Source: a virus
Taxonomy: Duplodnaviria; Heunggongvirae; Uroviricota; Caudoviricetes
Length of the DNA: 33,479 nucleotides
Reading direction: 5' to 3' (one strand)
Virus record (IMG/VR): IMGVR_UViG_2531839128_000027
A model generated the notes under the pieces. That model worked only from the letters and a program-made list of their open reading frames with translations. It ran no database searches and had not been told where the DNA came from. Below, one piece after another: positions 7,656 to 33,479 of the stretch. The translations under genes and the position numbers were made by a program. Each line of letters starts with the position of its first letter. Within the stretch, counting starts at the first letter, position 1.

Positions 7656-7697
7656 GTCCCGAACAGACAAAGATCCCGAAGGATCGCGCATAGCGGG

Positions 7698-10897: not shown

Positions 10898-10903
10898 TAT
10901 GAC

Positions 10904-10925
10904 GCCGGATGACTTTTCATCCGGC
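10904..10925. terminator. hairpin between convergent slmA and pyrE (candidate bidirectional terminator)
   Basis: Stem GCCGGATGA (10904..10912), loop CTTT, stem TCATCCGGC (10917..10925), followed by GAGTTTCTTT. Confidence 0.6.
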
Positions 10926-10933
10926 GAGTTTCT

Positions 10934-11575: not shown

Positions 11576-11607
11576 GCCTTCGCTCCTCATCTTACTTTTC
11601 TACAGAC

Positions 11608-11632
11608 AAAAAAAGGCGACTCATCAGTCGCC
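11608..11632 (-). terminator. pyrE attenuator: intrinsic terminator in the rph-pyrE intercistronic region
   Basis: Minus-strand transcript: stem GGCGACU, loop GAUG, stem AGUCGCC, then U7 (plus-strand A-run 11608..11614), placed between the rph stop (11640) and the pyrE start (11575). This matches the known UTP-sensitive attenuator. Confidence 0.85.
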
Positions 11633-11639
11633 TTAAAAA

Positions 11640-12356
11640 TCAGTTTGCCAGCGCCGCCTTCTGCGTCGCTACAATGGATTCGATTCCCCCTCGGGCCAGA
11701 GCCAACAAGGTGAGTAGCTCTTCATGGGTGAACGGCTCGCCTTCTGCCGTCCCCTGCACTTCAATGATGCGCCCGTCTTCGGTCATCACTACGTTCATGT
11801 CGGTCTCTGCGGCAGAGTCTTCAACGTATTCCAGATCGCAAACCGCTTCGCCGTTCACAATTCCGACAGAAACTGCGGCTACCATCCCTTTCATCGGATT
11901 GGTTTTCAGCTTGCCGTTTTCCACCAGCTTCTGTAGCGCATCTGCCAGCGCCACGCAGGCACCCGTAATCGACGCGGTACGCGTGCCACCATCAGCCTGA
12001 AGCACGTCGCAGTCCAGCGTAATGGTGAACTCACCCAGCGCTTTCAAATCTACTGCCGCGCGAAGAGCACGGGCGATCAGACGCTGGATTTCCATTGTGC
12101 GTCCACCCTGCTTACCTTTCGCCGCTTCACGAGCGTTACGGGTGTGGGTAGAACGTGGCAGCATGCCGTACTCTGCGGTGATCCAGCCCTGGCCCTGACC
12201 TTTCAGGAAGCGCGGCACGCCTTCTTCAATAGAGGCGGTACACAACACTTTGGTATCGCCAAATTCGACCAGCACCGAGCCTTCTGCATGTTTTGTATAG
12301 TTACGAGTCAGGGTAACGGGACGCACCTGATTATTGCTACGGCCTGCTGGACGCAT
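11640..12356 (-). CDS. rph: ribonuclease PH, intact
   Basis: The track ORF is 246 aa; the conserved 238-aa protein starts [14 protein letters not shown] at ATG 12356. The frame is open through ...[11 protein letters not shown], so there is no rph-1-type frameshift. Confidence 0.94.
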
Positions 12357-12482
12357 ATTGAAATCTCCGGCTTGAAACAAATGTGGCTGCGCATTATACG
12401 GACTTCCGGCGGTTATTCCTATCCTGACAAGGCATCGATGGCTATAATCCTTCCACCTCTCCTTTTATAAACAGGAACGTCT

Positions 12483-13346
12483 ATGATCCGCAGTATGACC
12501 GCCTACGCCCGGCGTGAAATCAAGGGTGAATGGGGGAGCGCAACCTGGGAAATGCGCTCGGTAAACCAGCGTTATCTGGAAACTTACTTTCGTCTGCCGG
12601 AGCAGTTCCGTAGCCTTGAACCTGTCGTTCGCGAGCGTATTCGTTCTCGCCTGACGCGCGGTAAAGTGGAATGTACCCTGCGCTATGAGCCAGATGTTAG
12701 CGCGCAAGGTGAGCTGATCCTCAACGAAAAACTGGCTAAACAGCTGGTAACTGCCGCGAACTGGGTAAAAATGCAGAGTGACGAAGGGGAAATCAACCCG
12801 GTTGATATTCTACGCTGGCCGGGCGTGATGGCAGCCCAGGAGCAGGATCTTGACGCCATTGCCGCTGAAATTCTCGCGGCGCTGGATGGTACGCTGGACG
12901 ACTTTATTGTCGCGCGCGAAACCGAAGGTCAGGCACTGAAAGCATTGATCGAGCAGCGTCTGGAAGGCGTCACCGCCGAAGTGGTCAAAGTCCGCGCCCA
13001 TATGCCGGAAATCCTGCAATGGCAGCGTGAGCGTCTGGTCGCGAAGCTGGAAGATGCTCAGGTTCAGTTGGAAAACAACCGTCTGGAGCAGGAGCTGGTT
13101 CTGCTGGCACAACGAATTGACGTTGCCGAAGAACTGGACCGCCTGGAAGCGCATGTCAAAGAGACCTACAACATTCTGAAGAAAAAAGAAGCCGTTGGTC
13201 GTCGTCTGGACTTTATGATGCAGGAATTCAACCGCGAGTCGAACACTCTTGCGTCGAAGTCTATCAATGCCGAAGTGACAAACTCCGCGATTGAGCTGAA
13301 AGTGTTGATTGAGCAGATGCGCGAGCAGATTCAGAACATTGAATAA
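12483..13346 (+). CDS. yicC: YicC-family protein (stress-induced; YicC-family endoribonuclease)
   Basis: 287-aa ORF MIRSMTAYARREIKGEWGSATWEMRSVNQRY..., the characteristic YicC N-terminus. Confidence 0.93.
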   Translation: MIRSMTAYARREIKGEWGSATWEMRSVNQRYLETYFRLPEQFRSLEPVVRERIRSRLTRGKVECTLRYEPDVSAQGELILNEKLAKQLVTAANWVKMQSDEGEINPVDILRWPGVMAAQEQDLDAIAAEILAALDGTLDDFIVARETEGQALKALIEQRLEGVTAEVVKVRAHMPEILQWQRERLVAKLEDAQVQLENNRLEQELVLLAQRIDVAEELDRLEAHVKETYNILKKKEAVGRRLDFMMQEFNRESNTLASKSINAEVTNSAIELKVLIEQMREQIQNIE

Positions 13347-13382
13347 CTCGTAACGCCAATTCTTACTTTTCAGCCTTCACAA

Positions 13383-13413
13383 ATGCCGCCCACTCAAACA
13401 GAGCGGCATTTTT
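13383..13413 (+). terminator. candidate terminator after yicC
   Basis: Stem ATGCCGC (13383..13389), 13-nt loop, stem GCGGCAT (13403..13409), then TTTTTCTT. The long loop lowers confidence. Confidence 0.45.
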
Positions 13414-13505
13414 CTTCCCCGCAACTTCAATTCTGTTTTGCGTGCCTGCTCCAGATTTTGCGATGTTTTTTTGCCCAGCACACTGAGAACGTGAGATACT
13501 CACAA

Positions 13506-13521
13506 CTGTATATAAATACAG
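13506..13521 (+). promoter_or_regulatory. LexA (SOS) box upstream of dinD
   Basis: CTGTATATAAATACAG, a perfect CTG-N10-CAG with an AT-rich core, about 45 bp upstream of the dinD start. Confidence 0.88.
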
Positions 13522-13566
13522 TTACAGATTTACTTTCTTTGCAATCGATATCACATGGAGTGGGCA

Positions 13567-14391
13567 ATGAACGAACATCATCAACCTTTTGAAGAAATAC
13601 GGCATTATGGCACTGAAGGGCAAGAATTTTGGTCAGCTAGAGAATTGGCACCGTTACTGGATTATCGGGACTGGCGCAATTTTCAAAAGGTACTGGCCCG
13701 CGCGACTCAAGCGTGCGAAGCCAGCAATCAAGCTGCATCTGACCATTTCGTTGAAACCACCAAAATGGTTGTATTAGGTTCAGGGGCTCAACGAGAACTT
13801 GAAGATGTTCATCTCTCCCGCTATGCCTGTTACCTGGTAGTACAAAACGGCGACCCTGCGAAACCGGTTATTGCGGCAGGGCAAACTTATTTTGCTATCC
13901 AGACCCGACGGCAGGAGCTGGCTGACGATGAAGCTTTCAGGCAACTTCGTGAAGACGAAAAGCGTCTTTTTCTGAGAAATGAATTGAAAGAACATAACAA
14001 ACAATTGGTTGAGGCAGCGCAGCAAGCTGGGGTAGCGACAGCTATCGATTTCGCCATATTTCAGAATCATGGTTACCGGGGGCTGTATGGTGGATTAGAT
14101 CAGAAAGCCATCCATCAGCGGAAGGGGCTGAAAAAGAGTCAGAAGATCCTGGATCATATGGGTTCAACAGAACTGGCGGCTAATCTCTTTCGAGCTACCC
14201 AAACAGAAGAAAAACTCAAGCGGGATGGCGTGAATTCAAAACAGCAAGCTAATACCACACACTTTGACGTGGGTAGCAAGGTGAGGCAAACCATTCAGGA
14301 ACTTGGCGGAACCATGCCTGAGGAGTTGCCGACCCCGCAGGTCAGCATCAAGCAGTTGGAAAACAGTGTAAAAATTACAGAGAAGAAATAG
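13567..14391 (+). CDS. dinD: DNA damage-inducible protein DinD
   Basis: The track ORF starts at 13555 (MEWAMNEHH...). The ATG at 13567 has a well-spaced GGAG SD and gives the 274-aa form; either start is possible. Confidence 0.9.
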   Translation: MNEHHQPFEEIRHYGTEGQEFWSARELAPLLDYRDWRNFQKVLARATQACEASNQAASDHFVETTKMVVLGSGAQRELEDVHLSRYACYLVVQNGDPAKPVIAAGQTYFAIQTRRQELADDEAFRQLREDEKRLFLRNELKEHNKQLVEAAQQAGVATAIDFAIFQNHGYRGLYGGLDQKAIHQRKGLKKSQKILDHMGSTELAANLFRATQTEEKLKRDGVNSKQQANTTHFDVGSKVRQTIQELGGTMPEELPTPQVSIKQLENSVKITEKK

Positions 14392-14682
14392 CAGAAACTA
14401 AAAACTCTTTTTGTTGATTGAGATACCCGATGCGTAAGCCAAAGTCCAGGTGCGGTGAACACAATGGCTAAACATTGCACCTTTCTTTTCCACCCCTCAA
14501 TTTTAACCTATTTTTTCTTATGCATTTTCTCAGACAAGAAGTCAGAAGAATGCATCTACGCTACAGAAAATAGCGATTTCACATAACTACAAGTTATCAA
14601 TTTCCTCTCACCTTAAAAAATCTCAATCGTGACAATACGCACAAATCGCTACCCTGCCAGACAGATTTTTAGGGAGAGAACC

Positions 14683-17860
<3,178 letters not shown>

Positions 17861-17914
17861 ACCTGATTTCAGTATCATGCCCAGTCATTTCTTCACCTGT
17901 GGAGCTTTTTAAGT

Positions 17915-18190
17915 ATGGCACGCGTAACTGTTCAGGACGCTGTAGAGAAAATTGGTAACCGTTTTGACCTGGTACTGGTCGCCGCGCGTCGCGCTCGTCA
18001 GATGCAGGTAGGCGGAAAGGATCCGCTGGTACCGGAAGAAAACGATAAAACCACTGTAATCGCGCTGCGCGAAATCGAAGAAGGTCTGATCAACAACCAG
18101 ATCCTCGACGTTCGCGAACGCCAGGAACAGCAAGAGCAGGAAGCCGCTGAATTACAAGCCGTTACCGCTATTGCTGAAGGTCGTCGTTAA
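17915..18190 (+). CDS. rpoZ: RNA polymerase omega subunit
   Basis: 91-aa [34 protein letters not shown]... Confidence 0.96.
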
Positions 18191-18208
18191 TCACAAAGCG
18201 GGTCGCCC

Positions 18209-20317
18209 TTGTATCTGTTTGAAAGCCTGAATCAACTGATTCAAACCTACCTGCCGGAAGACCAAATCAAGCGTCTGCGGCAGGCGTATCTCGTTGCACG
18301 TGATGCTCACGAGGGGCAAACACGTTCAAGCGGTGAACCCTATATCACGCACCCGGTAGCGGTTGCCTGCATTCTGGCCGAGATGAAACTCGACTATGAA
18401 ACGCTGATGGCGGCGCTGCTGCATGACGTGATTGAAGATACTCCCGCCACCTACCAGGACATGGAACAGCTTTTTGGTAAAAGCGTCGCCGAGCTGGTAG
18501 AGGGGGTGTCGAAACTTGATAAGCTCAAGTTCCGCGATAAGAAAGAGGCGCAGGCCGAAAACTTTCGCAAGATGATTATGGCGATGGTGCAGGATATCCG
18601 CGTCATTCTCATCAAACTTGCCGACCGTACCCACAACATGCGCACGCTGGGCTCACTTCGCCCGGACAAACGTCGCCGCATCGCCCGTGAAACTCTCGAA
18701 ATTTATAGCCCGTTGGCGCACCGTTTAGGTATCCACCACATTAAAACCGAACTCGAAGAGCTGGGTTTTGAGGCGCTGTATCCCAATCGTTACCGCGTAA
18801 TTAAAGAAGTGGTGAAAGCCGCGCGCGGCAACCGTAAAGAGATGATCCAAAAAATCCTCTCTGAAATCGAAGGGCGTTTGCAGGAAGCGGGAATACCGTG
18901 CCGCGTCAGTGGTCGCGAAAAGCATCTTTATTCGATTTACTGCAAAATGGTGCTCAAAGAGCAGCGTTTTCACTCAATCATGGACATCTACGCTTTCCGC
19001 GTGATCGTCAATGATTCTGACACCTGTTATCGCGTGCTCGGGCAAATGCATAGCCTGTACAAGCCGCGTCCGGGTCGCGTGAAAGACTATATCGCCATTC
19101 CTAAAGCGAACGGCTATCAGTCGTTGCACACCTCGATGATTGGCCCGCACGGCGTGCCGGTTGAGGTCCAGATCCGTACCGAAGATATGGATCAGATGGC
19201 GGAGATGGGTGTTGCCGCGCACTGGGCTTATAAAGAGCACGGCGAAACCAGTACTACCGCACAAATCCGCGCCCAGCGCTGGATGCAAAGCCTGCTGGAG
19301 CTGCAACAGAGCGCCGGTAGTTCGTTTGAATTTATCGAGAGCGTTAAATCCGATCTCTTCCCGGATGAGATTTACGTTTTCACACCGGAAGGGCGAATTG
19401 TCGAGCTGCCTGCCGGTGCAACGCCCGTCGACTTCGCTTATGCAGTGCATACCGATATCGGTCATGCCTGCGTGGGCGCACGCGTTGACCGCCAGCCTTA
19501 CCCGCTGTCGCAGCCGCTTACCAGCGGTCAAACCGTTGAAATCATTACCGCACCGGGCGCTCGCCCGAATGCCGCGTGGCTGAACTTTGTCGTTAGCTCA
19601 AAAGCGCGCGCCAAAATTCGTCAGTTGCTGAAAAACCTCAAGCGTGATGATTCTGTAAGCCTGGGCCGTCGTCTGCTCAACCATGCTTTGGGTGGTAGCC
19701 GTAAGCTGAATGAAATCCCGCAGGAAAATATTCAGCGCGAGCTGGATCGCATGAAGCTGGCAACGCTTGACGATCTGCTGGCAGAAATCGGCCTTGGTAA
19801 CGCAATGAGCGTGGTGGTCGCGAAAAATCTACAACATGGGGACGCCTCCATTCCACCGGCGACTCAAAGCCACGGGCATCTGCCGATCAAAGGCGCTGAT
19901 GGCGTGCTGATCACCTTTGCGAAATGCTGCCGCCCCATTCCTGGCGACCCGATTATCGCCCACGTCAGCCCCGGTAAAGGTCTGGTGATCCACCATGAAT
20001 CCTGCCGTAACATCCGTGGCTACCAGAAAGAGCCAGAGAAGTTTATGGCTGTGGAATGGGATAAAGAGACGGCGCAGGAGTTCATCACCGAAATCAAGGT
20101 GGAGATGTTCAATCATCAGGGTGCGCTGGCAAACCTGACGGCGGCAATTAACACCACGACCTCGAATATTCAAAGTTTGAATACGGAAGAGAAAGATGGT
20201 CGCGTCTACAGCGCCTTTATTCGTCTGACCGCTCGTGACCGTGTGCATCTGGCGAATATCATGCGCAAAATCCGCGTGATGCCAGACGTGATTAAAGTCA
20301 CCCGAAACCGAAATTAA
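18209..20317 (+). CDS. spoT: bifunctional (p)ppGpp synthetase II / hydrolase SpoT
   Basis: 702-aa ORF. The initiation codon at 18209..18211 is TTG, which the track shows as M. HD hydrolase domain, synthetase domain and C-terminal TGS/ACT region are all present. Confidence 0.95.
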   Translation: MYLFESLNQLIQTYLPEDQIKRLRQAYLVARDAHEGQTRSSGEPYITHPVAVACILAEMKLDYETLMAALLHDVIEDTPATYQDMEQLFGKSVAELVEGVSKLDKLKFRDKKEAQAENFRKMIMAMVQDIRVILIKLADRTHNMRTLGSLRPDKRRRIARETLEIYSPLAHRLGIHHIKTELEELGFEALYPNRYRVIKEVVKAARGNRKEMIQKILSEIEGRLQEAGIPCRVSGREKHLYSIYCKMVLKEQRFHSIMDIYAFRVIVNDSDTCYRVLGQMHSLYKPRPGRVKDYIAIPKANGYQSLHTSMIGPHGVPVEVQIRTEDMDQMAEMGVAAHWAYKEHGETSTTAQIRAQRWMQSLLELQQSAGSSFEFIESVKSDLFPDEIYVFTPEGRIVELPAGATPVDFAYAVHTDIGHACVGARVDRQPYPLSQPLTSGQTVEIITAPGARPNAAWLNFVVSSKARAKIRQLLKNLKRDDSVSLGRRLLNHALGGSRKLNEIPQENIQRELDRMKLATLDDLLAEIGLGNAMSVVVAKNLQHGDASIPPATQSHGHLPIKGADGVLITFAKCCRPIPGDPIIAHVSPGKGLVIHHESCRNIRGYQKEPEKFMAVEWDKETAQEFITEIKVEMFNHQGALANLTAAINTTTSNIQSLNTEEKDGRVYSAFIRLTARDRVHLANIMRKIRVMPDVIKVTRNRN

Positions 20318-20323
20318 TGTTTT

Positions 20324-21013
20324 ATGAACCCAACACGTTATGCACGCATCTGCGAAATGCTCGCCAGGCGGCAGCCTGATCTGACCGTCTGCATGGAGCA
20401 GGTCCACAAACCTCATAACGTTTCTGCGATTATTCGTACCGCAGATGCCGTTGGCGTACATGAAGTTCACGCCGTCTGGCCTGGTAGCCGCATGCGCACC
20501 ATGGCTTCGGCAGCGGCGGGTAGTAACAGCTGGGTACAGGTGAAAACACACCGCACCATTGGCGATGCCGTCGCTCATCTCAAAGGCCAGGGAATGCAGA
20601 TTCTGGCAACCCATCTTTCTGATAACGCTGTCGATTTCCGCGAAATTGATTACACTCGCCCGACCTGCATTTTGATGGGACAGGAGAAAACGGGCATCAC
20701 GCAGGAAGCATTGGCCCTGGCGGATCAGGACATCATCATTCCGATGATCGGCATGGTGCAGTCGCTGAATGTTTCCGTTGCCTCAGCCCTCATTCTTTAC
20801 GAAGCCCAGCGTCAGCGGCAAAATGCAGGCATGTACCTGCGTGAAAACAGCATGTTGCCGGAAGCAGAGCAACAACGCCTGTTGTTTGAAGGCGGCTATC
20901 CGGTGCTGGCGAAAGTCGCAAAACGCAAAGGCCTGCCTTATCCCCACGTCAATCAGCAAGGCGAGATCGAAGCTGATGCCGACTGGTGGGCTACTATGCA
21001 GGCTGCAGGGTAA
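20324..21013 (+). CDS. trmH: tRNA (Gm18) 2-prime-O-methyltransferase TrmH (SpoU)
   Basis: 229-aa ORF MNPTRYARICEMLARRQPDLTVCMEQVHKPHNVSAIIRTADAVG... (SPOUT fold), 6 nt downstream of spoT. Confidence 0.95.
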   Translation: MNPTRYARICEMLARRQPDLTVCMEQVHKPHNVSAIIRTADAVGVHEVHAVWPGSRMRTMASAAAGSNSWVQVKTHRTIGDAVAHLKGQGMQILATHLSDNAVDFREIDYTRPTCILMGQEKTGITQEALALADQDIIIPMIGMVQSLNVSVASALILYEAQRQRQNAGMYLRENSMLPEAEQQRLLFEGGYPVLAKVAKRKGLPYPHVNQQGEIEADADWWATMQAAG

Positions 21014-21018
21014 GTGCC

Positions 21019-23100
21019 ATGAAAGGTCGCCTGTTAGATGCTGTCCCACTCAGTTCCCTAACGGGCGTTGGCGCAGCACTTAGTAACAAACTGGCGAAAA
21101 TCAACCTGCATACCGTGCAGGATCTACTCTTACACCTTCCCCTGCGCTACGAAGATCGCACCCATCTCTACCCCATCGGAGAACTACTGCCGGGCGTTTA
21201 TGCCACGGTGGAAGGCGAAGTGCTGAACTGCAATATCTCCTTCGGCGGTCGGCGGATGATGACCTGCCAGATCAGCGACGGTTCCGGCATCCTCACCATG
21301 CGCTTTTTCAATTTCAGCGCGGCAATGAAAAATAGCCTGGCGACGGGCCGCCGTGTACTGGCTTATGGCGAAGCAAAGCGCGGTAAATATGGTGCGGAGA
21401 TGATCCACCCGGAATACCGCGTGCAGGGCGATCTCAGCACGCCAGAATTACAGGAAACGCTCACGCCGGTTTATCCAACAACGGAAGGCGTAAAGCAGGC
21501 CACGCTGCGTAAATTAACCGACCAGGCGCTGGATCTGCTCGACACCTGCGCCATTGAAGAACTCCTGCCGCCGGAACTGTCACAAGGAATGATGACGCTA
21601 CCGGAAGCGTTGCGCACTTTGCACCGCCCGCCACCGACGCTACAGCTTAGCGATCTGGAAACCGGGCAGCATCCGGCGCAACGTCGTCTGATTCTGGAAG
21701 AACTGCTGGCGCACAACCTCAGCATGTTAGCCTTACGTGCCGGAGCACAGCGTTTTCATGCCCAGCCGCTGAGCGCCAATGACACGCTGAAAAATAAACT
21801 CCTCGCCGCCTTACCGTTCAAGCCAACGGGCGCACAGGCACGCGTAGTGGCGGAGATCGAGCGCGATATGGCGCTGGATGTGCCGATGATGCGTCTGGTG
21901 CAGGGCGATGTAGGTTCCGGTAAAACGCTGGTCGCCGCCCTCGCCGCGTTGCGTGCGATTGCCCACGGCAAACAGGTAGCATTGATGGCACCAACCGAAT
22001 TACTCGCCGAGCAGCACGCCAATAACTTCCGCAACTGGTTTGCACCGCTCGGTATCGAAGTGGGCTGGCTCGCCGGTAAGCAGAAAGGTAAAGCACGGCT
22101 GGCACAGCAGGAAGCCATCGCCAGCGGTCAGGTGCAGATGATTGTCGGTACACACGCCATCTTCCAGGAACAGGTGCAGTTTAACGGCCTGGCGCTGGTG
22201 ATTATCGACGAACAGCATCGTTTTGGCGTGCATCAGCGTCTGGCATTGTGGGAGAAAGGCCAGCAGCAGGGCTTCCATCCGCATCAGTTGATCATGACCG
22301 CCACGCCGATCCCCCGCACGCTGGCAATGACTGCGTATGCCGATCTCGATACCTCGGTGATAGATGAGCTGCCGCCAGGCCGCACGCCAGTGACTACGGT
22401 CGCTATTCCTGATACCCGCCGTACCGACATCATTGACCGCGTGCGCCACGCCTGCATAACTGAAGGTCGTCAGGCATACTGGGTTTGTACGTTGATTGAA
22501 GAGTCGGAATTGCTGGAAGCGCAGGCGGCGGAAGCTACCTGGGAAGAGTTGAAACTGGCGCTACCAGAGTTGAACGTTGGCCTGGTACACGGGCGGATGA
22601 AACCTGTCGAGAAACAGGCGGTGATGGCGTCGTTTAAACAAGGTGAGCTACACCTGCTGGTTGCCACAACCGTTATTGAAGTCGGCGTTGATGTGCCTAA
22701 CGCCAGTCTGATGATTATCGAAAACCCGGAGCGTCTGGGTCTGGCGCAGTTACACCAGCTTCGCGGGCGTGTAGGTCGTGGTGCGGTGGCTTCTCACTGC
22801 GTGCTGCTCTACAAAACGCCGCTCTCCAAAACCGCGCAAATTCGGCTGCAAGTGCTGCGCGACAGCAACGACGGTTTTGTGATTGCACAGAAAGACTTAG
22901 AGATTCGCGGACCGGGTGAACTGTTAGGTACGCGTCAGACGGGTAATGCTGAGTTTAAAGTGGCGGATTTACTGCGCGATCAGGCGATGATCCCGGAAGT
23001 TCAGCGCCTGGCGCGACATATTCACGAACGTTACCCACAACAAGCAAAAGCCCTGATAGAACGCTGGATGCCGGAGACGGAACGTTACTCCAACGCATGA
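21019..23100 (+). CDS. recG: ATP-dependent DNA helicase RecG
   Basis: The track ORF starts at 20986; the conserved 693-aa RecG starts MKGRLLDAVPLSSLTGVGAA at ATG 21019. Walker A GDVGSGKT and DEQH box are present. It ends ...ERYSNA with TGA at 23098..23100. Confidence 0.96.
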   Translation: MKGRLLDAVPLSSLTGVGAALSNKLAKINLHTVQDLLLHLPLRYEDRTHLYPIGELLPGVYATVEGEVLNCNISFGGRRMMTCQISDGSGILTMRFFNFSAAMKNSLATGRRVLAYGEAKRGKYGAEMIHPEYRVQGDLSTPELQETLTPVYPTTEGVKQATLRKLTDQALDLLDTCAIEELLPPELSQGMMTLPEALRTLHRPPPTLQLSDLETGQHPAQRRLILEELLAHNLSMLALRAGAQRFHAQPLSANDTLKNKLLAALPFKPTGAQARVVAEIERDMALDVPMMRLVQGDVGSGKTLVAALAALRAIAHGKQVALMAPTELLAEQHANNFRNWFAPLGIEVGWLAGKQKGKARLAQQEAIASGQVQMIVGTHAIFQEQVQFNGLALVIIDEQHRFGVHQRLALWEKGQQQGFHPHQLIMTATPIPRTLAMTAYADLDTSVIDELPPGRTPVTTVAIPDTRRTDIIDRVRHACITEGRQAYWVCTLIEESELLEAQAAEATWEELKLALPELNVGLVHGRMKPVEKQAVMASFKQGELHLLVATTVIEVGVDVPNASLMIIENPERLGLAQLHQLRGRVGRGAVASHCVLLYKTPLSKTAQIRLQVLRDSNDGFVIAQKDLEIRGPGELLGTRQTGNAEFKVADLLRDQAMIPEVQRLARHIHERYPQQAKALIERWMPETERYSNA

Positions 23101-23951
23101 CCAGACTCATCACAAGACAAGTCACGCAGTAAATCTTCAATCTGGATAGTGAGGATATCCATTGCCTCATACGCATCCTGTGCAATTCGCGCCGCCATTG
23201 CGCCTTCCGGTTCACCACGCAGAATTTCAGCCGCTGCCTGTACGCCAGCCACAATCATTTCAGGTGTTAACATTTGGCGAAGAAAAGCGCGATTATCAGA
23301 GGACCAGCCATCTTTATGGCCTAATGGATGCCCCCAGCCTATCCATTCTTGCGACCATAACGGATTGGCTTCTATGGGATAAATTAGATGCACGGCATAC
23401 TGAATAGCACACACCGCTTTTCCTGGCGTATCCAGCGCCCACCAGCGCGACCAGAGAGAATGAATTAACGGCGCGGCCCCACCCAGAGTATTGAACACCG
23501 CCAGCCAGCAAAGAACGTTATTGAAACCACGCTCGTTATCCATACGCTGCAACGCGGTGTCCAGTAAAAATTGCCGTACCTGCTGGCGTTGGGAAGCATT
23601 CATCATCTCCTGCCAGAGATAGGGCCGACACAATGCCTTCATTAAGGATTCTTCGAAGTGATCACCATAACCGCCAGCTAAAACGGTTTCATGCCATTGC
23701 GCCAGGCAGAGCGGAAACAGATAGCGAAACAACTCTATTTGCATCGGTTCGTTATAAACGAGATTGAGTACATAGTAAGCACTCAAATCCCATACGCTGA
23801 TCTGCTGCCACTCTTTAGCCGCCAGCGCCTTGAGTTCGGCATCTGCGTAATCAAATTCCGTTTCCCATACACAGAGCACTGGCGGCTCATCACCAAAAAT
23901 ATGGCGACAGTGTTCACGTAGCGTTTCCGGTTCCTTCCGACGCTTTTTCAT
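23085..23951 (-). CDS. hypothetical Trp-rich protein of unknown function (288 aa), immediately downstream of gltS and convergently overlapping the recG 3-prime end
   Basis: Uninterrupted 867-nt ORF (MKKRRKEPETLREHCRHIFGDEPPVLCVWETEFDYADAELKALAAKEW...). Codon usage looks host-like (CTG, GCG, CGT, GAA rich) and there is no competing long ORF on the other strand. The start is 2 nt after the gltS stop and the stop lies 16 nt inside recG. I see no recognisable motif. The upstream SD is weak, so the exact start is uncertain. Confidence 0.65.
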   Translation of the reverse strand: MKKRRKEPETLREHCRHIFGDEPPVLCVWETEFDYADAELKALAAKEWQQISVWDLSAYYVLNLVYNEPMQIELFRYLFPLCLAQWHETVLAGGYGDHFEESLMKALCRPYLWQEMMNASQRQQVRQFLLDTALQRMDNERGFNNVLCWLAVFNTLGGAAPLIHSLWSRWWALDTPGKAVCAIQYAVHLIYPIEANPLWSQEWIGWGHPLGHKDGWSSDNRAFLRQMLTPEMIVAGVQAAAEILRGEPEGAMAARIAQDAYEAMDILTIQIEDLLRDLSCDESGHALE

Positions 23952-23953
23952 TT

Positions 23954-25159
23954 TTAACCGGCAAAAATCGGCAACATTAAATACAGCTTAATCACCAGCG
24001 CATTGACGATATCGATAAAGAACGCACCGACCATCGGCACCACCAAAAACGCCATGTGCGACGGGCCAAAGCGTTCAGTGATCGCCTGCATGTTGGCGAT
24101 TGCCGTTGGCGTTGCACCGAGGCCAAAACCACAGTGACCCGCAGCCAGCACTGCCGCATCGTAGTTTTTGCCCATCATGCGCCAGGTAACGAAGATGGCA
24201 TACAACGCCATGAAGATGGTCTGTACCACCAGAATCGCCAGCATCGGCAGCGCCAGCGAAGCCAGCTCCCACAGTTTCAGCCCCATCAGCGCCATCGCCA
24301 GGAACAACGACAGGCTTACGTTACCCAGCACGGATACCGCACGCTCAAAGACGCGGTAAAAGCCCATCATTGACAGACCGTTGCTCAGAATCACGCCAAC
24401 AAACAGTACACAGACGAAGGTCGGCAGTTCAAAAGCAGTGCCAGCCAAAAGTTGCGCAACAATTTTCCCCACCGTCAGGCAGATAGCAATCAGCGCGATA
24501 GTTTCAATCAGCACCAGCGAGGTGATCATGCGGCCCACATCCGGCTTTTCAAACGCCGTCGGGACTTCCTGGTCATCCGGAATACCGTTCGGCGTGGTGG
24601 AGTGTTTCACCAGATAGCGCGCCACCGGACCGCCAATCAAGCCGCCCAGCACCAGACCGAACGTTGCACAGGCCATCGCCACTTCCGTCGCATTGGTGAA
24701 GCCATAACGTTCAATGAACAATTTACTCCACGCAGCGCCCGTACCGTGACCGCCGGAAAGCGTAATAGAACCGGCCAACAGCCCCATCAGCGGATCAAGC
24801 CCTAACAGGCTAGCCATACCAATGCCAATGGCATTTTGCATCACCAACAGACCAACAACCACAATCAAGAAGATGCCAACCACACGCCCACCGGCACGCA
24901 AACTGGCAATGTTGGCGTTCAGGCCAATGGTGGCGAAGAAAGCCAGCATTAACGGATCGCGCAGGGACATATCAAAGTTGACTTCCCAGCCCATGCTTTT
25001 TTTCAGTACTAGTAGCGCCAGCGCCACCAACAAACCACCCGCAACAGGTTCCGGTATGGTGTATTTCTTCAAAAAGGAGACGGAATGGACCAACTTACGC
25101 CCGAGCAGCAACGTCAGCGTTGCGGCAACAAGCGTTGCTAAAGTATCGAGATGAAACAT
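23954..25159 (-). CDS. gltS: sodium/glutamate symporter GltS
   Basis: 401-aa polytopic membrane protein MFHLDTLATLVAATLTLLLGRKLVHS... of the same length and type as E. coli GltS. Confidence 0.95.
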   Translation of the reverse strand: MFHLDTLATLVAATLTLLLGRKLVHSVSFLKKYTIPEPVAGGLLVALALLVLKKSMGWEVNFDMSLRDPLMLAFFATIGLNANIASLRAGGRVVGIFLIVVVGLLVMQNAIGIGMASLLGLDPLMGLLAGSITLSGGHGTGAAWSKLFIERYGFTNATEVAMACATFGLVLGGLIGGPVARYLVKHSTTPNGIPDDQEVPTAFEKPDVGRMITSLVLIETIALIAICLTVGKIVAQLLAGTAFELPTFVCVLFVGVILSNGLSMMGFYRVFERAVSVLGNVSLSLFLAMALMGLKLWELASLALPMLAILVVQTIFMALYAIFVTWRMMGKNYDAAVLAAGHCGFGLGATPTAIANMQAITERFGPSHMAFLVVPMVGAFFIDIVNALVIKLYLMLPIFAG

Positions 25160-25344
25160 AGTTACTCCTTTGTATCCGCATCACTCTTTCATACTCGTCA
25201 TACTTCATCGCGCAGTGGCAACTTCATGAACTATGACGGGTATCGAGTTATGCTTTCCTGGGTCAAATTCTCAGCTGTTAATGAACAAATGGCATGGATT
25301 TTAAGCAGAAAAATACCAAAAGTTATATAAAAAAGTGCATTTAT

Positions 25345-25366
25345 CTCATTTAAATATTTAGATGAG
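25345..25366. promoter_or_regulatory. 22-bp near-perfect palindrome in the gltS-xanP divergent promoter region (candidate operator)
   Basis: CTCATTTAAAT|ATTTAGATGAG: the 11-bp half-sites match at 10 of 11 positions as inverted repeats. Centred about 83 bp upstream of the xanP ATG. Confidence 0.35.
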
Positions 25367-25438
25367 GATGTGGCAAACGTTTGCTTTTCTCTTTCGGTCA
25401 GCTAAAATGCCCGCTTTGCTACCACGGGATTGTTTTCG

Positions 25439-26830
25439 ATGTCTGTTTCCACCCTCGAGTCAGAAAATGCGCAACCGGTTGCGCAGACTCAAAACAGCGA
25501 ACTGATTTACCGTCTTGAAGATCGTCCGCCGCTTCCTCAAACCCTGTTTGCCGCCTGTCAGCATCTGCTGGCGATGTTCGTTGCGGTGATCACGCCAGCG
25601 CTATTAATCTGCCAGGCGCTGGGTTTACCGGCACAAGACACGCAACACATTATTAGTATGTCGCTGTTTGCCTCCGGTGTGGCATCGATTATTCAAATTA
25701 AGGCCTGGGGTCCGGTTGGCTCCGGGCTGTTGTCTATTCAGGGCACCAGCTTCAACTTTGTTGCCCCGCTGATTATGGGCGGTACCGCGCTGAAAACCGG
25801 TGGTGCTGATGTTCCTACCATGATGGCGGCTTTGTTCGGCACGTTGATGCTGGCAAGTTGCACCGAGATGGTGATCTCCCGCGTTCTGCATCTGGCGCGC
25901 CGCATTATTACGCCGCTGGTTTCTGGCGTTGTGGTGATGATTATCGGCCTGTCGCTAATTCAGGTTGGGTTAACGTCCATTGGCGGCGGTTACGCAGCCA
26001 TGAGCGATAACACCTTCGGCGCACCGAAAAATCTGCTGCTGGCAGGCGTGGTCTTAGCCTTAATTATCCTGCTTAACCGTCAACGTAACCCTTACTTACG
26101 CGTGGCCTCACTGGTGATTGCGATGGCGGCCGGATATGCGCTGGCGTGGTTTATGGGCATGTTGCCAGAAAGCAACGAACCGATGACGCAAGAACTGATT
26201 ATGGTGCCAACGCCGCTCTATTACGGTCTTGGCATTGAATGGAGTCTGCTGCTGCCGCTGATGCTGGTCTTTATGATCACTTCGCTGGAAACCATTGGCG
26301 ATATCACGGCGACCTCTGACGTTTCCGAACAGCCAGTGTCCGGTCCGCTGTACATGAAACGCCTGAAAGGTGGCGTGCTGGCAAACGGCCTGAACTCGTT
26401 TGTTTCGGCGGTGTTTAACACCTTCCCGAACTCCTGCTTCGGGCAAAACAACGGAGTGATCCAGTTGACTGGTGTTGCCAGCCGCTATGTCGGTTTTGTC
26501 GTCGCGCTGATGTTGATCGTGCTGGGTCTGTTCCCGGCAGTGAGCGGTTTTGTACAACACATTCCAGAACCGGTTCTGGGCGGCGCAACGCTTGTAATGT
26601 TTGGCACCATCGCCGCCTCCGGTGTGCGTATCGTTTCTCGTGAGCCGCTGAACCGTCGGGCGATTCTGATTATCGCGCTGTCGCTGGCGGTTGGTCTGGG
26701 CGTGTCTCAGCAGCCGCTGATTTTGCAGTTTGCCCCTGAATGGCTGAAAAACCTGCTCTCCTCCGGGATCGCCGCGGGCGGTATTACTGCCATCGTGCTG
26801 AATCTGATTTTCCCACCAGAAAAACAGTAA
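25439..26830 (+). CDS. xanP: xanthine permease XanP (NCS2/NAT family)
   Basis: The track ORF starts at TTG 25430; the conserved 463-aa protein starts [16 protein letters not shown] at ATG 25439. Polytopic NAT-family transporter. Confidence 0.94.
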
Positions 26831-26837
26831 TTCACTG

Positions 26838-26862
26838 GCGGCGGTAAGATAATTACCGCCGC
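26838..26862 (+). terminator. hairpin downstream of xanP (candidate terminator)
   Basis: Stem GCGGCGGTAA (26838..26847), 5-nt loop, stem TTACCGCCGC (26853..26862). The trailing U-tract is weak. Confidence 0.45.
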
Positions 26863-26950
26863 AGTCTCACCTCTTTCACCATTCCCGCCTTGAGGATTGC
26901 GCGTAAATCGTGCATAACTCCCTTATGTGCATTTCACGGGATGGAAGACC

Positions 26951-28660
26951 ATGAAATTTATTGGGAAGCTGCTTCTCTACATTCTCATCGCTCTGTTAGT
27001 GGTGATCGCTGGCCTCTATTTTCTTCTGCAAACCCGCTGGGGAGCAGAACATATCAGCGCATGGGTTTCCGAGAATAGCGACTATCATCTGGCCTTCGGG
27101 GCGATGGATCACCGTTTTTCCGCGCCATCTCATATCGTGCTGGAGAACGTCACGTTTGGCCGTGATGGCCAGCCCGCGACCCTGGTGGCAAAAAGTGTCG
27201 ACATTGCGCTAAGCAGTCGGCAACTGACCGAACCACGCCATGTCGATACCATCCTGCTGGAAAACGGGACGCTGAATCTCACCGACCAGACCGCGCCGCT
27301 ACCGTTCAAAGCCGATCGTCTGCAACTGCGTGATATGGCGTTTAATAGCCCGAATAGCGAATGGAAACTGAGCGCGCAGCGGGTAAATGGCGGCGTAGTT
27401 CCGTGGTCACCAAAAGCCGGTAAAGTGCTGGGTACGAAGGCGCAGATTCAGTTTAGTGCCGGATCGCTTTCGCTCAATGATGTTCCTGCCACCAATGTAC
27501 TGATTGAAGGCAGTATTGATAACGATCGCGTTACGCTGACTAACCTGGGTGCCGACATCGCCCGCGGGACATTAACCGGAAACGCGCAGCGTAACGCCGA
27601 CGGCAGCTGGCAAGTGGAAAACCTGCGCATGGCGGATATACGTCTACAAAGCGAAAAATCGCTAACCGACTTCTTTGCGCCATTACGCTCTGTCCCGTCG
27701 TTGCAGATTGGTCGCCTGGAAGTGATCGATGCTCGTTTGCAAGGTCCGGACTGGGCGGTGACCGACCTCGATCTCAGCTTGCGCAACATGACCTTCAGTA
27801 AAGATGACTGGCAGACACAGGAAGGCAAACTGTCGATGAACGCTAGCGAGTTCATTTATGGTTCGCTGCATTTATTTGACCCGATTATAAACGCGGAATT
27901 TTCCCCGCAGGGCGTAGCGCTGCGCCAGTTCACCAGCCGCTGGGAAGGGGGTATGGTCAGAACGTCAGGGAACTGGCTGCGTGACGGGAAAACGTTGATC
28001 CTTGATGATGTGGCAATTGCCGGGCTGGAATATACCTTGCCGAAAAACTGGCAACAGTTGTGGATGGAAACGACACCCGGTTGGTTAAACAGCCTGCAAC
28101 TGAAGAGATTTAGCGCCAGCCGCAATCTGATCATTGATATCGACCCTGACTTCCCGTGGCAGCTCACCGCGCTCGATGGTTACGGTGCCAACCTGACGCT
28201 GGTTACCGATCATAAATGGGGCGTCTGGAGTGGCTCGGCGAATCTGAATGCCGCCGCCGCGACATTCAATCGTGTTGATGTTCGTCGCCCGTCGCTGGCG
28301 CTGACCGCCAACAGCAGCACGGTGAATATCAGCGAACTGAGTGCATTTACTGAAAAAGGCATTCTGGAAGCCACCGCCAGTGTTTCACAAACGCCACAAC
28401 GTCAGACACATATCAGCCTGAATGGACGCGGTGTGCCGGTGAATATTTTGCAACAGTGGGGATGGCCTAAATTACCGTTGACTGGCGACGGCAATATTCA
28501 GCTTACCGCCAGTGGCGATATTCAGGCCAATGTCCCGTTGAAACCTACGGTTAGCGGGCAATTGCATGCCGTGAACGCCGCAAAGCAGCAAGTGACTCAA
28601 ACCATGAATGCTGGCATCGTTTCCAGCGGTGAAGTTACATCGACGGAGCCGGTGCGGTAA
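26951..28660 (+). CDS. yicH: AsmA-family protein YicH
   Basis: The track ORF starts at 26927; the conserved 569-aa protein starts MKFIGKLLLYILIALLVVIAGLYFLLQTRWG at ATG 26951, with an N-terminal TM anchor typical of the AsmA family. Confidence 0.92.
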   Translation: MKFIGKLLLYILIALLVVIAGLYFLLQTRWGAEHISAWVSENSDYHLAFGAMDHRFSAPSHIVLENVTFGRDGQPATLVAKSVDIALSSRQLTEPRHVDTILLENGTLNLTDQTAPLPFKADRLQLRDMAFNSPNSEWKLSAQRVNGGVVPWSPKAGKVLGTKAQIQFSAGSLSLNDVPATNVLIEGSIDNDRVTLTNLGADIARGTLTGNAQRNADGSWQVENLRMADIRLQSEKSLTDFFAPLRSVPSLQIGRLEVIDARLQGPDWAVTDLDLSLRNMTFSKDDWQTQEGKLSMNASEFIYGSLHLFDPIINAEFSPQGVALRQFTSRWEGGMVRTSGNWLRDGKTLILDDVAIAGLEYTLPKNWQQLWMETTPGWLNSLQLKRFSASRNLIIDIDPDFPWQLTALDGYGANLTLVTDHKWGVWSGSANLNAAAATFNRVDVRRPSLALTANSSTVNISELSAFTEKGILEATASVSQTPQRQTHISLNGRGVPVNILQQWGWPKLPLTGDGNIQLTASGDIQANVPLKPTVSGQLHAVNAAKQQVTQTMNAGIVSSGEVTSTEPVR

Positions 28661-28671
28661 ACATCAATCTC

Positions 28672-28698
28672 GCCGGGTACGACTCAGACGTACCCGGC
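28672..28698. terminator. GC-rich hairpin between convergent yicH and yicI
   Basis: Stem GCCGGGTACG (28672..28681), loop ACTCAGA, stem CGTACCCGGC (28689..28698). U-tracts are weak on both sides. Confidence 0.5.
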
Positions 28699-28712
28699 AT
28701 TCCATCAATAGA

Positions 28713-31031
28713 TTACAACGTAATTGTCAGCGCATTCCCTTGAGGCTTCACCACCAGCCCCTGCTCACTTTCAGCCTGCGAACCGTCTTGCAGACCATTT
28801 ACTTTCACAACATTGCGCAGGCACAGCGTCCAGTTCTTCGCCTCGCCCGCACCAGTCACAGTAATCGTGTTGCCAGTACGTGCTGCTTTTAAAGTAAAGA
28901 TCACCGATCCGTCAGTAGCGGGCACTTCACAGACGGCTTCATGCCCGTCTTGCAGATTAAAGAGGTGGAATGCCGTGCCTTCGTGCCACACGTAATCGGG
29001 ACGTTGATCGTTGTTGCCCAGCGCCAGTAGGGTGTTATCACGCACATAAATGGGCAGACTCAGGAAGCTGTGCTGCTGTTTATGCCAGCGACTACCGTCG
29101 AGCTCATCGTTGTGCCACAGGTGTGTCCAGCGACCTTCCGGCAGGTAGAACTGCACATCGCCCGCTTCAGTGAACACCGGCGCAACCATCACGTTGTCGC
29201 CTAACATGTATTGACGGTCAAGGTAATCACAAGCCGGATCGTCCGGGAACTCCATCATCATGGCCCGCATCATCGGCGTACCCCGCGCGTTCGCACGCGC
29301 AGCTTCACGATACAGATACGGCATCATGCGGCATTTCAGTTGCGTGAAGAAGCGCACCACATCACAGGACTCATCATCGTAGGCCCACGGCACACGATAA
29401 GATTTGCTACCGTGTAAACGGCTATGGCTGGAGAGCAAACCAAACGCGCACCAGCGTTTGTAAACGTGCGCCGGAGCGGTATTTTCAAAGCCGCCGATAT
29501 CGTGGCTCCAGAAGCCAAAACCTGAAAGGCCAATAGACAAACCACCGCGCAGGCTTTCCGCCATTGATTCGTAGTTAGCGTAACAATCGCCACCCCAGTG
29601 TACCGGGAATTTCTGCGCACCGACGGAGGCCGAGCGGGCAAACAAGACAGCTTCTTCCTCACCAACGGTGTCCTTGAGCACGTTCCACACCAGTTCGTTG
29701 TAGATGTACGCATAATGGTTATGCATTTTCTGCGGATCGGAACCGTCAAACCACTGAACATCAGTTGGGATACGTTCGCCAAAGTCGGTCTTAAAGCAAT
29801 CAACGCCCATCGCGACCAGACCTTTCAGTTTGTCGGCGTACCATTTGCAGGCATCCGGATTGGTAAAGTCATAAATCGCCAGACCTGGCTGCCATTTATC
29901 CCACTGCCATAGCGAACCGTCCGGGCGTTTGAGTAAATAGCCTTTCTCTTGTAACTCTTTAAAGACGGGGGATTTTTGACCGATATAGGGGTTAATCCAG
30001 ACGCAGATTTTCAGTCCTTTCGCTTTCAGGCGGCGGATCATCCCTTCCGGGTCAGGGAAAGTCAGCGGGTCCCACTCAAAATCGCACCACTGGAAGGCTT
30101 TCATCCAGAAACAGTCAAAGTGGAAAACATGCAGCGGCAGATTGCGTTCCGCCATACCATCGATAAAGCTGTTTACCGTCGCTTCGTCGTAGTTGGTGGT
30201 AAATGAAGTGGTTAGCCACAGGCCGAAGGACCACGCGGGCGGCAGCGCCGGACGACCAGTAAAGCGGGTATAACGATCAAGTACCGCTTTCGGCGTCGGG
30301 CCGTCGATAACAAAGTATTCGAGATATTCACTCTCAACGCTGAACTGCACTTTGGAGACTTTCTCCGATCCCACTTCAAAAGAGACACACTGGGGATGAT
30401 TGACCAGTACCCCATAACCACGGTTAGTCATGTAGAACGGGATATTTTTATACGCCTGTTCAGTACTTGTGCCGCCGTCCCGGTTCCAGGTCTCTACCGT
30501 CTGGCCATTGCGCACCAGGGCAGTAAAGCGCTCTCCCAGACCGTAAACTGTTTCGCCAACGCCAAGATCAAGCCGCTCAAACATATAATTGCGTTGATTA
30601 TTCGTGTCCTGCACGTAGCCATTATTTTTCACCTGACTACCGGTAATACGTTCGCCGTTGCGCAGAAAATCCAGTGACCAGAACTCACCTTTGCTGACAC
30701 GCGCGCTTAAGTTGCCACTTTTAAACTCAGCATAACGTTCTGTGTTTTCGATTGTGACCTTCACGTCCTGCAAAATATTGAGCGGATAATGAGGACCGTT
30801 ATTCAGCGCCCCCTGAAAATGCTCAATCCGCACACCGACAATACCTTCCTGTGGGGAGAAAAAGCGCAACGTAAATAAAGGAGTATCAAGCTGCCAGGTA
30901 CGTTCACGCACATCACGGGGGGCAGCATAGACCACCATTTCATTATCCTGCTGTTCAACCTCGAACACCTGAAGCGGGTGAATCAAATTGAGGCCAGGTT
31001 GAATCAACCAGTTTCCATCGCTAATTTTCAT
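28713..31031 (-). CDS. yicI: alpha-xylosidase YicI (glycoside hydrolase family 31)
   Basis: 772-aa [31 protein letters not shown]...; GH31 character (WINPYI, catalytic region around KTDFGE). It sits 9 nt downstream of yicJ. Confidence 0.95.
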
Positions 31032-31040
31032 TGCCGTTCC

Positions 31041-32423
31041 TTAGTTCTGCACTTCTTGAGAGGTGAATTGTTGCTGGCAACGGCGTTTACCCTGAGCCAG
31101 CTGTTCCATAACGGTTTTCAGATTGTGCGTCGTGAGTGAGTAGTAGCGTTTAGCGATAATCGCGCTCAGCAAATAACAGATCGCCGGAACAATCGTGAAT
31201 AGCGCAATAATGATGCTAATCGTGGCGCTGTTCTGCGCTTTTTCTGCCGCATCATATCCGCCATAAGCCAGCATCCAGCCGATAAGAGCGCCGCCGAAGG
31301 CCAACCCCAGTTTGAGCACAAACAGCGTGCCAGCAAAACTGATCCCGGTCAGGCGTTTACCATTGCACCACTCGCCGTAGTCGACGGTATCGGACATCAT
31401 TACCCACTGGATAGGTGTCACCAGTTGATGCAACACACCAATCACGAAGATGAAGACAAACATAGTGATGCTGGCCTGCATGGGAACAAAGAACATCGCG
31501 AGGCTAATCACTGCCAGCAGGGCGTTCGTCCACCAGAAGATAGTGACTTTACATTTCCAGTCGGTCAGAGGTTTTGCCAGTGCGGAACCAATCAGGTTAC
31601 CCACGCAATAAGTGGTGAGAAAAGCGACAAACACTTCCGGCGTGCCCAAAATCCATGTGACGTAATACATCATCGCCCCACCGCGTACGCACACCGCCAG
31701 GATATTGAAAATGGTTAGTAAACCGACAATCCGCCACTGGTCGTTTTGCCAGATATCACGTAAATCTTCCCGCATAGACGTTGTTGTAGGTGGTGCTTCA
31801 ACGCGTTCTTTAGTGGTGAAGAAACAAAATGCCAGCATCATGAATGCCACCACGGAAAGGACCGCGATACCGCCCTGGAAACCGAGTGGTTTATTATCAC
31901 CGCCAATTAAATTAACCAGTGGCATCATCAGAACAGTAGAAAGCATGCCTCCCGCGGTCGCCAGCACAAAACGCCAGGATTGCAGCGAGATACGCTGAGT
32001 CGGGTCATTGGTGATTACACCACCCAATGCGCAGTAAGGGATATTGACGACGGTATAAAGTAAGGTAAGTAGGGTGTAAGTAATTGCTGCATAGATCATT
32101 TTGCCGTTCATACTGAGATCTGGCGTGCTATAGGCCAGTACACAGACGATCCCGAATGGCAGTGCGCCAAACAGTACCCACGGACGAAATTTACCCCAGC
32201 GAGAGCGCGTTCGATCGGCCAACAACCCCATGCAAGGATCGGAAATCGCATCCAGTGCACGAGCGACCAAAAACATGGTTCCGACAAATCCGGCAGGAAT
32301 GCCAAAAATATCGGTATAAAAGAACATCATATATAACATTACGTTATCGAAAATAATGTGGCTGGCGGCGTCTCCCATGCCATAACCAATTTTCTCTTTA
32401 ACGGACAACACTTCACTCTTCAT
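31041..32423 (-). CDS. yicJ: GPH-family sugar:cation symporter YicJ (putative xyloside transporter)
   Basis: The track ORF is 479 aa; the conserved 460-aa protein starts MKSEVLSVKEKIGYGMGDAASH at ATG 32423..32421. Polytopic membrane protein, co-oriented with yicI. Confidence 0.92.
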   Translation of the reverse strand: MKSEVLSVKEKIGYGMGDAASHIIFDNVMLYMMFFYTDIFGIPAGFVGTMFLVARALDAISDPCMGLLADRTRSRWGKFRPWVLFGALPFGIVCVLAYSTPDLSMNGKMIYAAITYTLLTLLYTVVNIPYCALGGVITNDPTQRISLQSWRFVLATAGGMLSTVLMMPLVNLIGGDNKPLGFQGGIAVLSVVAFMMLAFCFFTTKERVEAPPTTTSMREDLRDIWQNDQWRIVGLLTIFNILAVCVRGGAMMYYVTWILGTPEVFVAFLTTYCVGNLIGSALAKPLTDWKCKVTIFWWTNALLAVISLAMFFVPMQASITMFVFIFVIGVLHQLVTPIQWVMMSDTVDYGEWCNGKRLTGISFAGTLFVLKLGLAFGGALIGWMLAYGGYDAAEKAQNSATISIIIALFTIVPAICYLLSAIIAKRYYSLTTHNLKTVMEQLAQGKRRCQQQFTSQEVQN

Positions 32424-32655
32424 CTGCTTTTCCTTGATGCTATAGGGGTGCTGAGACCGATAACGCATTTTGTAAACCATCCCTGTGAGAGCGAATATTC
32501 CGATATCTGGTTATTAATTTATGATTCTTGTTTTATGTGATCGTGGTAGCGTTAATTCCGCTCATATATCATTGTAAAATATGGGTTTTATATGAACTAT
32601 AATGCTTTCGTGATAATACGCTGCGTGTATTAGGCGGAAAAAACTGATCTGGGGG

Positions 32656-32684
32656 ATGTAGAAACTCAAGGAAGTAGCTATAAT
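32656..32684 (+). promoter_or_regulatory. candidate selC promoter (-10 TATAAT at 32679..32684, GC-rich discriminator)
   Basis: TATAAT lies 31 nt upstream of the mature tRNA 5-prime end and is followed by GCGCCCCGCCTCC, a GC-rich discriminator typical of stable-RNA promoters. The -35 (TGTAGA, 17-nt spacer) is a poor match. Confidence 0.4.
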
Positions 32685-32715
32685 GCGCCCCGCCTCCATG
32701 TAGCAATCGAGGCGC

Positions 32716-32810
32716 GGAAGATCGTCGTCTCCGGTGAGGCGGCTGGACTTCAAATCCAGTTGGGGCCGCCAGCGGTCCCGGGCAGGTTCGACTCCTGTGA
32801 TCTTCCGCCA
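32716..32810 (+). tRNA. selC: tRNA-Sec (selenocysteine, anticodon UCA)
   Basis: GGAAGATCGTCGTCTCCGGTGAGGCGGCTGGACTTCAAATCCAGTTGGGGCCGCCAGCGGTCCCGGGCAGGTTCGACTCCTGTGATCTTCCGCCA: 95 nt with the long extra arm, anticodon TCA and encoded CCA, matching E. coli selC. Confidence 0.97.
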
Positions 32811-33067
32811 AAATGCCTCTCCTGACGTTCTCCAACCCCTTGTAATACTGTCAATCCAGATATTTTCTACTGCTCAATATTCAATCGGCTTCAGGAATAC
32901 CTGGTCTAAGGTTTTGTGATGGACGATGAGCGGCTGAAGAATCCGCCTGTCGGTTCTTCTGTCCTCGAACGCATCCGCGATATTCACGCCAGTATGCGCC
33001 GTGTTTATTTGCAGGTGATTTGCCCCCCTGCTGACTCTCAGCCAACTGTATCGCCATTAAGGTGAAG

Positions 33068-33090
33068 GGTGATGCTGCCAACTTACTGAT
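33068..33090 (+). repeat. IS1 left terminal inverted repeat (IRL)
   Basis: GGTGATGCTGCCAACTTACTGAT matches the canonical IS1 end. Confidence 0.9.
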
Positions 33091-33122
33091 TTAGTGTATG
33101 ATGGTGTTTTTGAGGTGCTCCA

Positions 33123-33398
33123 GTGGCTTCTGTTTCTATCAGCTGTCCCTCCTGTTCAGCTACTGACGGGGTGGTGCGTAACGGCAAAAGCACCGCCGGA
33201 CATCAGCGCTATCTCTGCTCTCACTGCCGTAAAACATGGCAACTGCAGTTCACTTACACCGCTTCTCAACCCGGTACGCACCAGAAAATCATTGATATGG
33301 CCATGAATGGCGTTGGATGCCGGGCAACAGCCCGCATTATGGGCGTTGGCCTCAACACGATTTTACGTCACTTAAAAAACTCAGGCCGCAGTCGGTAA
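33123..33398 (+). CDS. insA: IS1 InsA (transposition inhibitor; N-terminal part of the InsAB-prime transposase)
   Basis: 91-aa [94 protein letters not shown], matching IS1 InsA with its zinc finger and HTH. Confidence 0.96.
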
Positions 33399-33479
33399 CC
33401 TCGCGCATACAGCCGGGCAGTGACGTCATCGTCTGCGCGGAAATGGACGAACAGTGGGGCTATGTCGGGGCTAAATCGC

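Follow-up and report, generated by a model that had tools for sequence, protein, structure and literature searches.

Genomic islands integrated at selC include LEE, SHI-2, the tia PAI and AGI-3, and SPI-3 of Salmonella is likewise located at selC, where it carries rhuM near the tRNA. In the insertion sequence IS1, the promoter of insA is located in the left inverted repeat (IRL), the inverted repeats are the sites at which InsA acts as a repressor, and a rare -1 frameshift at an A6C site yields the InsAB' transposase, which acts on the terminal inverted repeats. IS1 prefers AT-rich targets, of which it duplicates 8-9 bp, and composite transposons flanked by IS1 (Tn9 type) exist. Integration at selC has been described in the literature for the genomic island AGI-3 (PMC2704930).

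The stretch of DNA analysed here (33,479 bp in its whole length, hereafter the window) contains both selC and the beginning of an IS1 copy. According to the original prediction, an IS1 left end with an intact insA begins 257 bp past selC and runs off the window end, and what follows could be either the edge of an island or ordinary backbone with a simple insertion. The described layout proved accurate: selC ends at 32810 and IRL starts at 33068, with a gap of 257 bp (32811..33067) between them, and the 91-aa insA ORF is complete within the 412 bp of IS1 that are seen (Table 1). We consider it probable that the locus results from a recent simple insertion of IS1A into ordinary E. coli backbone in which the selC attachment (att) site is empty.

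Table 1 Features of the selC-IS1 region and of the 288-aa ORF, with window coordinates
Feature	Position	Strand	Basis or remark
288-aa ORF between recG and gltS, overlapping the recG 3' end by 16 bp	23085..23951	-	no Pfam family on record
selC, tRNA-Sec gene, anticodon TCA	32716..32810	+	ARAGORN; Rfam RF01852, 83.8 bits, E=1.4e-17
selC 3' 24 bp, att core, duplicated at the far end of selC islands	32787..32810	+	single copy here
K-12-type backbone between selC and IS1, 257 bp	32811..33067	+	100% identical to K-12 MG1655 and many other genomes
Decayed RhuM-family pseudogene fragment with internal stop	32889..33050	+	RefSeq rhuM pseudogene in K-12 and others; translation
Predicted target-site duplication AAGGTGAAG, left copy abutting IRL	33059..33067	.	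conditional on simple insertion; AAGGTGAAGATGTTGTTTTACTCG continuous in K-12
IS1 (IS1A type), first 412 of about 768 bp, truncated at the window end	33068..33479	+	0 mismatches to IS1A of NZ_CP019005
IS1 left inverted repeat IRL, starting GGTGATGCTGCCAACTTACTGAT	33068..33090	+	sequence; identical to IS1A
insA, intact, 91 aa	33123..33398	+	ORF list; PF03811 1.3e-21 (76.4 bits), PF12759 4.7e-31 (106.6 bits)
insB' 5' part, -1 frame, truncated by the window end	33371..33479	+	36-aa translation equals the start of InsB'
A6C programmed -1 frameshift site TTAAAAAAC, predicted source of InsAB'	33372..33380	+	sequence; RefSeq 'programmed frameshift' on identical copies

The selC attachment site and the adjoining backbone

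According to ARAGORN, tRNA-Sec is the sole tRNA of the window. A search for the 26-nt 3' end of selC in the 33.5-kb window, with up to three mismatches allowed, gave one match. The segment 32811..33067, which the original prediction proposed to compare with the region downstream of selC in K-12, is 100% identical to this empty-site sequence and is present in 4,516 of the 5,426 complete E. coli genomes (about 83%). Since the window contains a single selC 3' fragment and empty-site sequence follows straight after selC, the integrase att site at the tRNA 3' end is unoccupied in the window; therefore, no tRNA-targeted island is present, and IS1 sits in the backbone.

The boundaries of occupied sites are seen in genomes with a selC island. 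One of these is L023 (1..1141, reverse orientation), a public read-set assembly (SRR13347162, together with 16 similar places). Over 19,726 bp, its backbone shows 0 mismatches to window positions 13085..32810; directly past 32810, an island with a P4-type tyrosine integrase takes over. In L005 and L011, the match to the window begins again at 32787, so that the distal island end bears a partial copy (24 bp) of the 3' end of selC; both islands end just before the rhuM remnant, and the 257-bp segment is found only past their far end. Their CP4-type cargo includes antirestriction, RadC and CbtA/CbeA genes, with an AIDA-type autotransporter in L005. A look-up of the 48-aa rhuM' ORF, which was used to define att, returned K-12-like or island-bearing contexts only among the ten places shown.

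All testable features of selC-island membership are absent from the window. Foreign DNA at the selC 3' end is replaced by K-12 empty-site sequence that runs across the point (32810/32811) at which the island genomes break; no second selC fragment forms the direct repeat of the tRNA 3' end (attL/attR) within the 33.5 kb; and no tyrosine integrase lies beside the tRNA, the ORFs from selC to the window end being the rhuM fragment and insA/insB' only, with no counterpart of the L023 integrase among them. A second att copy beyond the window is improbable, as it would not follow once empty-site sequence has been passed. Thus, the island-edge option of the original prediction was not borne out, and it is very improbable that this IS1 copy borders a pathogenicity island. 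DNA of the L023-type selC-adjacent integrase was detected in 1,564 of the 5,426 complete genomes, which makes selC a busy integration site. The hotspot invoked in the prediction is therefore genuine for selC itself, but it is irrelevant to a transposition 257 bp away; the landing of IS1 at this distance is better explained by the preference of the element for AT-rich spacer DNA.

Two further observations concern island-bearing relatives. The match between L023 and the window backbone includes the rare Val variant described below, so that occupied and empty selC alleles exist in an otherwise identical backbone; an island-free and an occupied site in such a setting indicate a very recent gain or loss of the island. 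In addition, four hits (H77, H96, H97 and H98) combine near-100% backbone identity with an insertion of ~11-12 kb inside the region matching window 8100..33067. The genes of this insertion include one for a primase-helicase zinc-binding domain protein and, in some of the four, one for a DEAD/DEAH box helicase, and the insertion is probably a small selC island.

The rhuM remnant within the 257-bp segment spans ~54 codons and has a weak Pfam match (PF13310, E=9.9e-5, 22.2 bits, under the 33.7-bit cutoff). Its position beside selC in conserved backbone is suggestive of a relic left by an ancient selC island, with the Pfam match being sub-threshold. At the insertion point, K-12 continues uninterrupted from AAGGTGAAG into ATGTTGTTTTACTCG (beginning ATGTTG after AAGGTGAAG), and the spacer just downstream of the site has a GC content of 21-38% and ends at the setC start codon ~379 bp on. 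IS1 is thus located at the boundary between the GC-normal rhuM remnant and the AT-rich selC-setC spacer, at the upstream edge of the latter. The disruption of a known sRNA by the insertion was considered and dropped, since no Rfam families besides selC were found in or around the target.

The IS1A copy and its lineage

The 412 bp of IS1 are identical at all 412 positions to the beginning of a RefSeq-annotated IS1A copy (script comparison and blastn), which cannot be a chance match, and no other IS1 copies were found in the window by blastn. The insA product combines a zinc ribbon with an HTH, as is characteristic of the IS1 family, and both Pfam domains score above their cutoffs. The A6C site, another feature of the family, joins insA to insB', and the -1 frame remains open to the window end. 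A sigma-70-like promoter site (33075..33102) overlaps IRL and extends slightly beyond it. Of the terminal inverted repeats of ~23 bp, IRL is seen, and neither the window nor any sibling contig extends as far as the right repeat (IRR), the longest of these contigs covering 644 bp of IS1 compared with 412 bp in the window; the DDE_Tnp_IS1 domain (PF03400) becomes visible solely in the continuation provided by one sibling contig (L024). The element is oriented in the same direction as selC and setC. It is IS1A itself, with nothing new in it. A mechanical minus-strand ORF of 66 aa across the junction had no record in the look-up.

The surrounding backbone belongs to a well-defined lineage. Window 1..33067 (from waaO to selC and the spacer) is colinear with the nearest complete genome, E. 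coli EC20-4B-2 (NZ_AP026937), and 33,066 of 33,067 positions are identical. Downstream of selC, EC20-4B-2 has rhuM', setC, yicL, nlpA, yicS, nepI, yicN and adeQ, with neither IS1 nor an island. The sole SNP, at 23392, changes Ala to Val in the 288-aa hypothetical protein. In the protein collection, this protein shares a 90% cluster with GltS, which looks like a clustering artefact. The exact Val variant is rare (15 contigs), and its look-up led to five NCBI drafts (APYK, APYN, APYO, APYQ and APYR; assemblies GCA_000357165.1, GCA_000357365.2, GCA_000357325.1, GCA_000357305.2 and GCA_000358795.2) with the identical junction of backbone and IRL. A Shigella origin was also considered and rejected, given the identity of the backbone to E. 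coli and the NCBI label Escherichia coli on the Val-variant proteins, whose accessions belong to one series with those of the sibling drafts.

Searches for the exact left junction revealed no matches in the 5,426 complete E. coli genomes (60-bp query, E<=1e-9) and none in the GTDB species representatives or the JGI metagenomes. The same junction in five near-clonal drafts and its absence from the complete genomes demonstrate a real insertion that is common to a small clonal group and serves as a lineage marker, as had been anticipated when the position of IS1 was proposed as a strain marker. The site is therefore new with respect to the complete genomes searched, and it is already contained in public draft assemblies; literature searches returned no match for the sibling WGS accessions, and a description of this insertion did not emerge from the search on selC/IS1/setC. 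Each of the five sibling contigs breaks off after 357-644 bp of IS1. Because they too stop inside the element, the window most probably ends in IS1 for the same reason, namely, that a draft contig broke at a multi-copy repeat, rather than on account of something out of the ordinary beyond it. One sibling contig (L025) has three differences from the window inside IS1 (at window 33449, 33460 and 33463), near the contig end, which is consistent with reads of mixed IS1 variants at an assembly break.

A probable simple insertion and competing explanations

These results raise the question of what happened when IS1 entered the locus: was the backbone left intact, or did the insertion bring about or accompany a larger change? 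Comparable events provide a reference. Near selC, we surveyed 11 IS1 insertions in complete genomes, of which ten hit the spacer or setC and the remaining one lies between yicJ and selC. Simple insertions account for eight; these show a 9-bp duplication (8 bp in a single instance), and the backbone on either side is intact. The other three have no duplication and show IS1-adjacent deletions: 88 bp of the spacer in L019 (IS1 at 3193..3960); ~0.84 kb, including the 5' 528 bp of setC, in L015 (3126..3893); and ~6.5 kb in L021 (3134..3901), where setC, yicL, nlpA, yicS, nepI, yicN and part of adeQ are missing and IS1 abuts the truncated adeQ. All 11 copies are single 768-bp elements; cargo was found in none of them, nor was an inversion to an unrelated region. 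In two unrelated genomes (L013 and L014, IS1 at 3354..4121), one with a selC island and the other without, the same 9-bp target GTATCAGCG (6542..6550 of the K-12 locus L002) is occupied by two IS1 variants, with identities to IS1A of 99.6% and 94.3%, and the presence of different variants in unrelated genomes indicates an independent double hit on one site. IS1 has repeatedly hit the AT-rich spacer between selC and setC.

We favour a simple insertion, since eight of the 11 comparable events are of this type and a near-identical relative is free of an island. IS1A would have transposed into the backbone 257 bp after selC and ~379 bp before the start of setC. Beyond the window, the IS1 right end GGAGTCATTACC, a second AAGGTGAAG, ATGTTGTTTTACTCG with the remaining spacer sequence, setC and yicL would be expected in this order. 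The predicted right junction would read ...CATTACC-AAGGTGAAG-ATGTTGTTTTACTCGCCCC and run into setC, with the IS1 right end then followed by AAGGTGAAGATGTTGTTTTACTCG. A search for this right junction (IRR, AAGGTGAAG and K-12) gave no matches in the GTDB representatives and JGI metagenomes; as both collections are also devoid of the left junction, and hence of this lineage, this result is uninformative. Both the anatomy of the element (IRL, promoter-like site, insA, frameshift site and beginning of insB') and its AT-rich target region are fully in line with the biology of IS1. A polar or read-out effect of IS1 on setC is conceivable.

A distinctly less likely course of events is insertion followed by local rearrangement, either an adjacent deletion of the spacer, setC and its neighbours or recombination or inversion between IS1 copies, in which case the 9-bp duplication would be missing. 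The three surveyed copies with deletions and without duplications (L019, L015 and L021) set a precedent, although they are outnumbered by the eight simple events. Genomes bearing IS1 also contain many copies (a median of ~10 matching places and up to 68, for a query that also carried backbone), which are substrates for recombination; against this, an inversion to an unrelated region was seen in none of the 11 cases, and the closest relative, with one SNP in 33 kb, retains intact downstream backbone, which leaves little time for secondary events.

It is very unlikely that a composite element bounded by IS1 begins here, with this copy as its first arm, or that the copy marks the border of foreign cargo brought in by transposition rather than through an integrase; loosely speaking, either case would bear out the island edge of the original prediction. 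The IS1 sequence past base 412 lies outside the window, which gives this explanation its room, and nothing within the window favours it. The selC att site is empty, all 11 surveyed copies at the locus are single 768-bp elements without cargo, and near-identical EC20-4B-2 carries no foreign DNA here. We attach an equally small probability to the broader case in which IS1 is the arm of a cargo element or the breakpoint of a large rearrangement, so that foreign or relocated DNA would lie beside an empty selC att site with the integrase route bypassed. Finally, the notion that the junction is an assembly or chimera artefact with no real IS1 at this place, which might be prompted by the end of the window in a repeat, where draft assemblies are least reliable, and by the mixed variant bases near the end of L025, can practically be dismissed, as five assemblies deposited separately, together with further contigs, share the same backbone-IRL junction, and the switch to IS1 coincides exactly with the first IRL base, as in true transposition.

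The event, regarded here as a probable simple insertion, is of an ordinary, already known kind and of modest significance. Its practical value is threefold. The junction between CCATTAAGGTGAAG and GGTGATGCTGCC cleanly marks a single small clonal group of E. coli. In scans for islands, a mobile element near selC should not be equated with an island; what should be tested is whether the match to the empty site is lost at the final base of the tRNA gene. Finally, approximately a quarter of the surveyed IS1 events (3/11) were accompanied by adjacent deletions, which in some cases removed setC or more, and setC and its neighbours could therefore be affected, with no phenotype implied.

Comparison with known systems

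The selC islands of L005, L011 and L023 share with the window the tRNA locus and the same 257-bp segment, which in island-bearing genomes is located just beyond the far end of the island. They begin at the last selC base and possess a P4-type tyrosine integrase and the 24-bp selC repeat, whereas the window lacks both of these features. With Salmonella SPI-3, the E. coli backbone shares the theme of a RhuM-family fragment right after selC; in contrast to rhuM of SPI-3, the E. coli fragment is a pseudogene with an internal stop and is unconnected to the IS1 event.

With IS1A of E. coli K-12, the element has IRL, insA, the A6C frameshift site and the insB' start in common, and the 412 bp match RefSeq-annotated IS1A copies at every base. 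The difference consists in chromosomal position alone (6257/6258 in the K-12 locus L002), with the window covering the left 412 bp. The other IS1 copies of the selC region (e.g., in NZ_CP019005, NZ_CP195498, NZ_OX460335 and NZ_CM177011) represent the same element in the same orientation and in similarly AT-rich surroundings, and most are simple insertions. Their insertion points in L002 are 5799, 6303, 6322, 6329, 6389, 6486/6488, 6550, 6579, 6734 and 7141, compared with 6257 for the window. Thus, downstream of selC, none of these insertions is closer to the tRNA gene than the one described here, which occupies the edge of the AT-rich stretch and not its interior.
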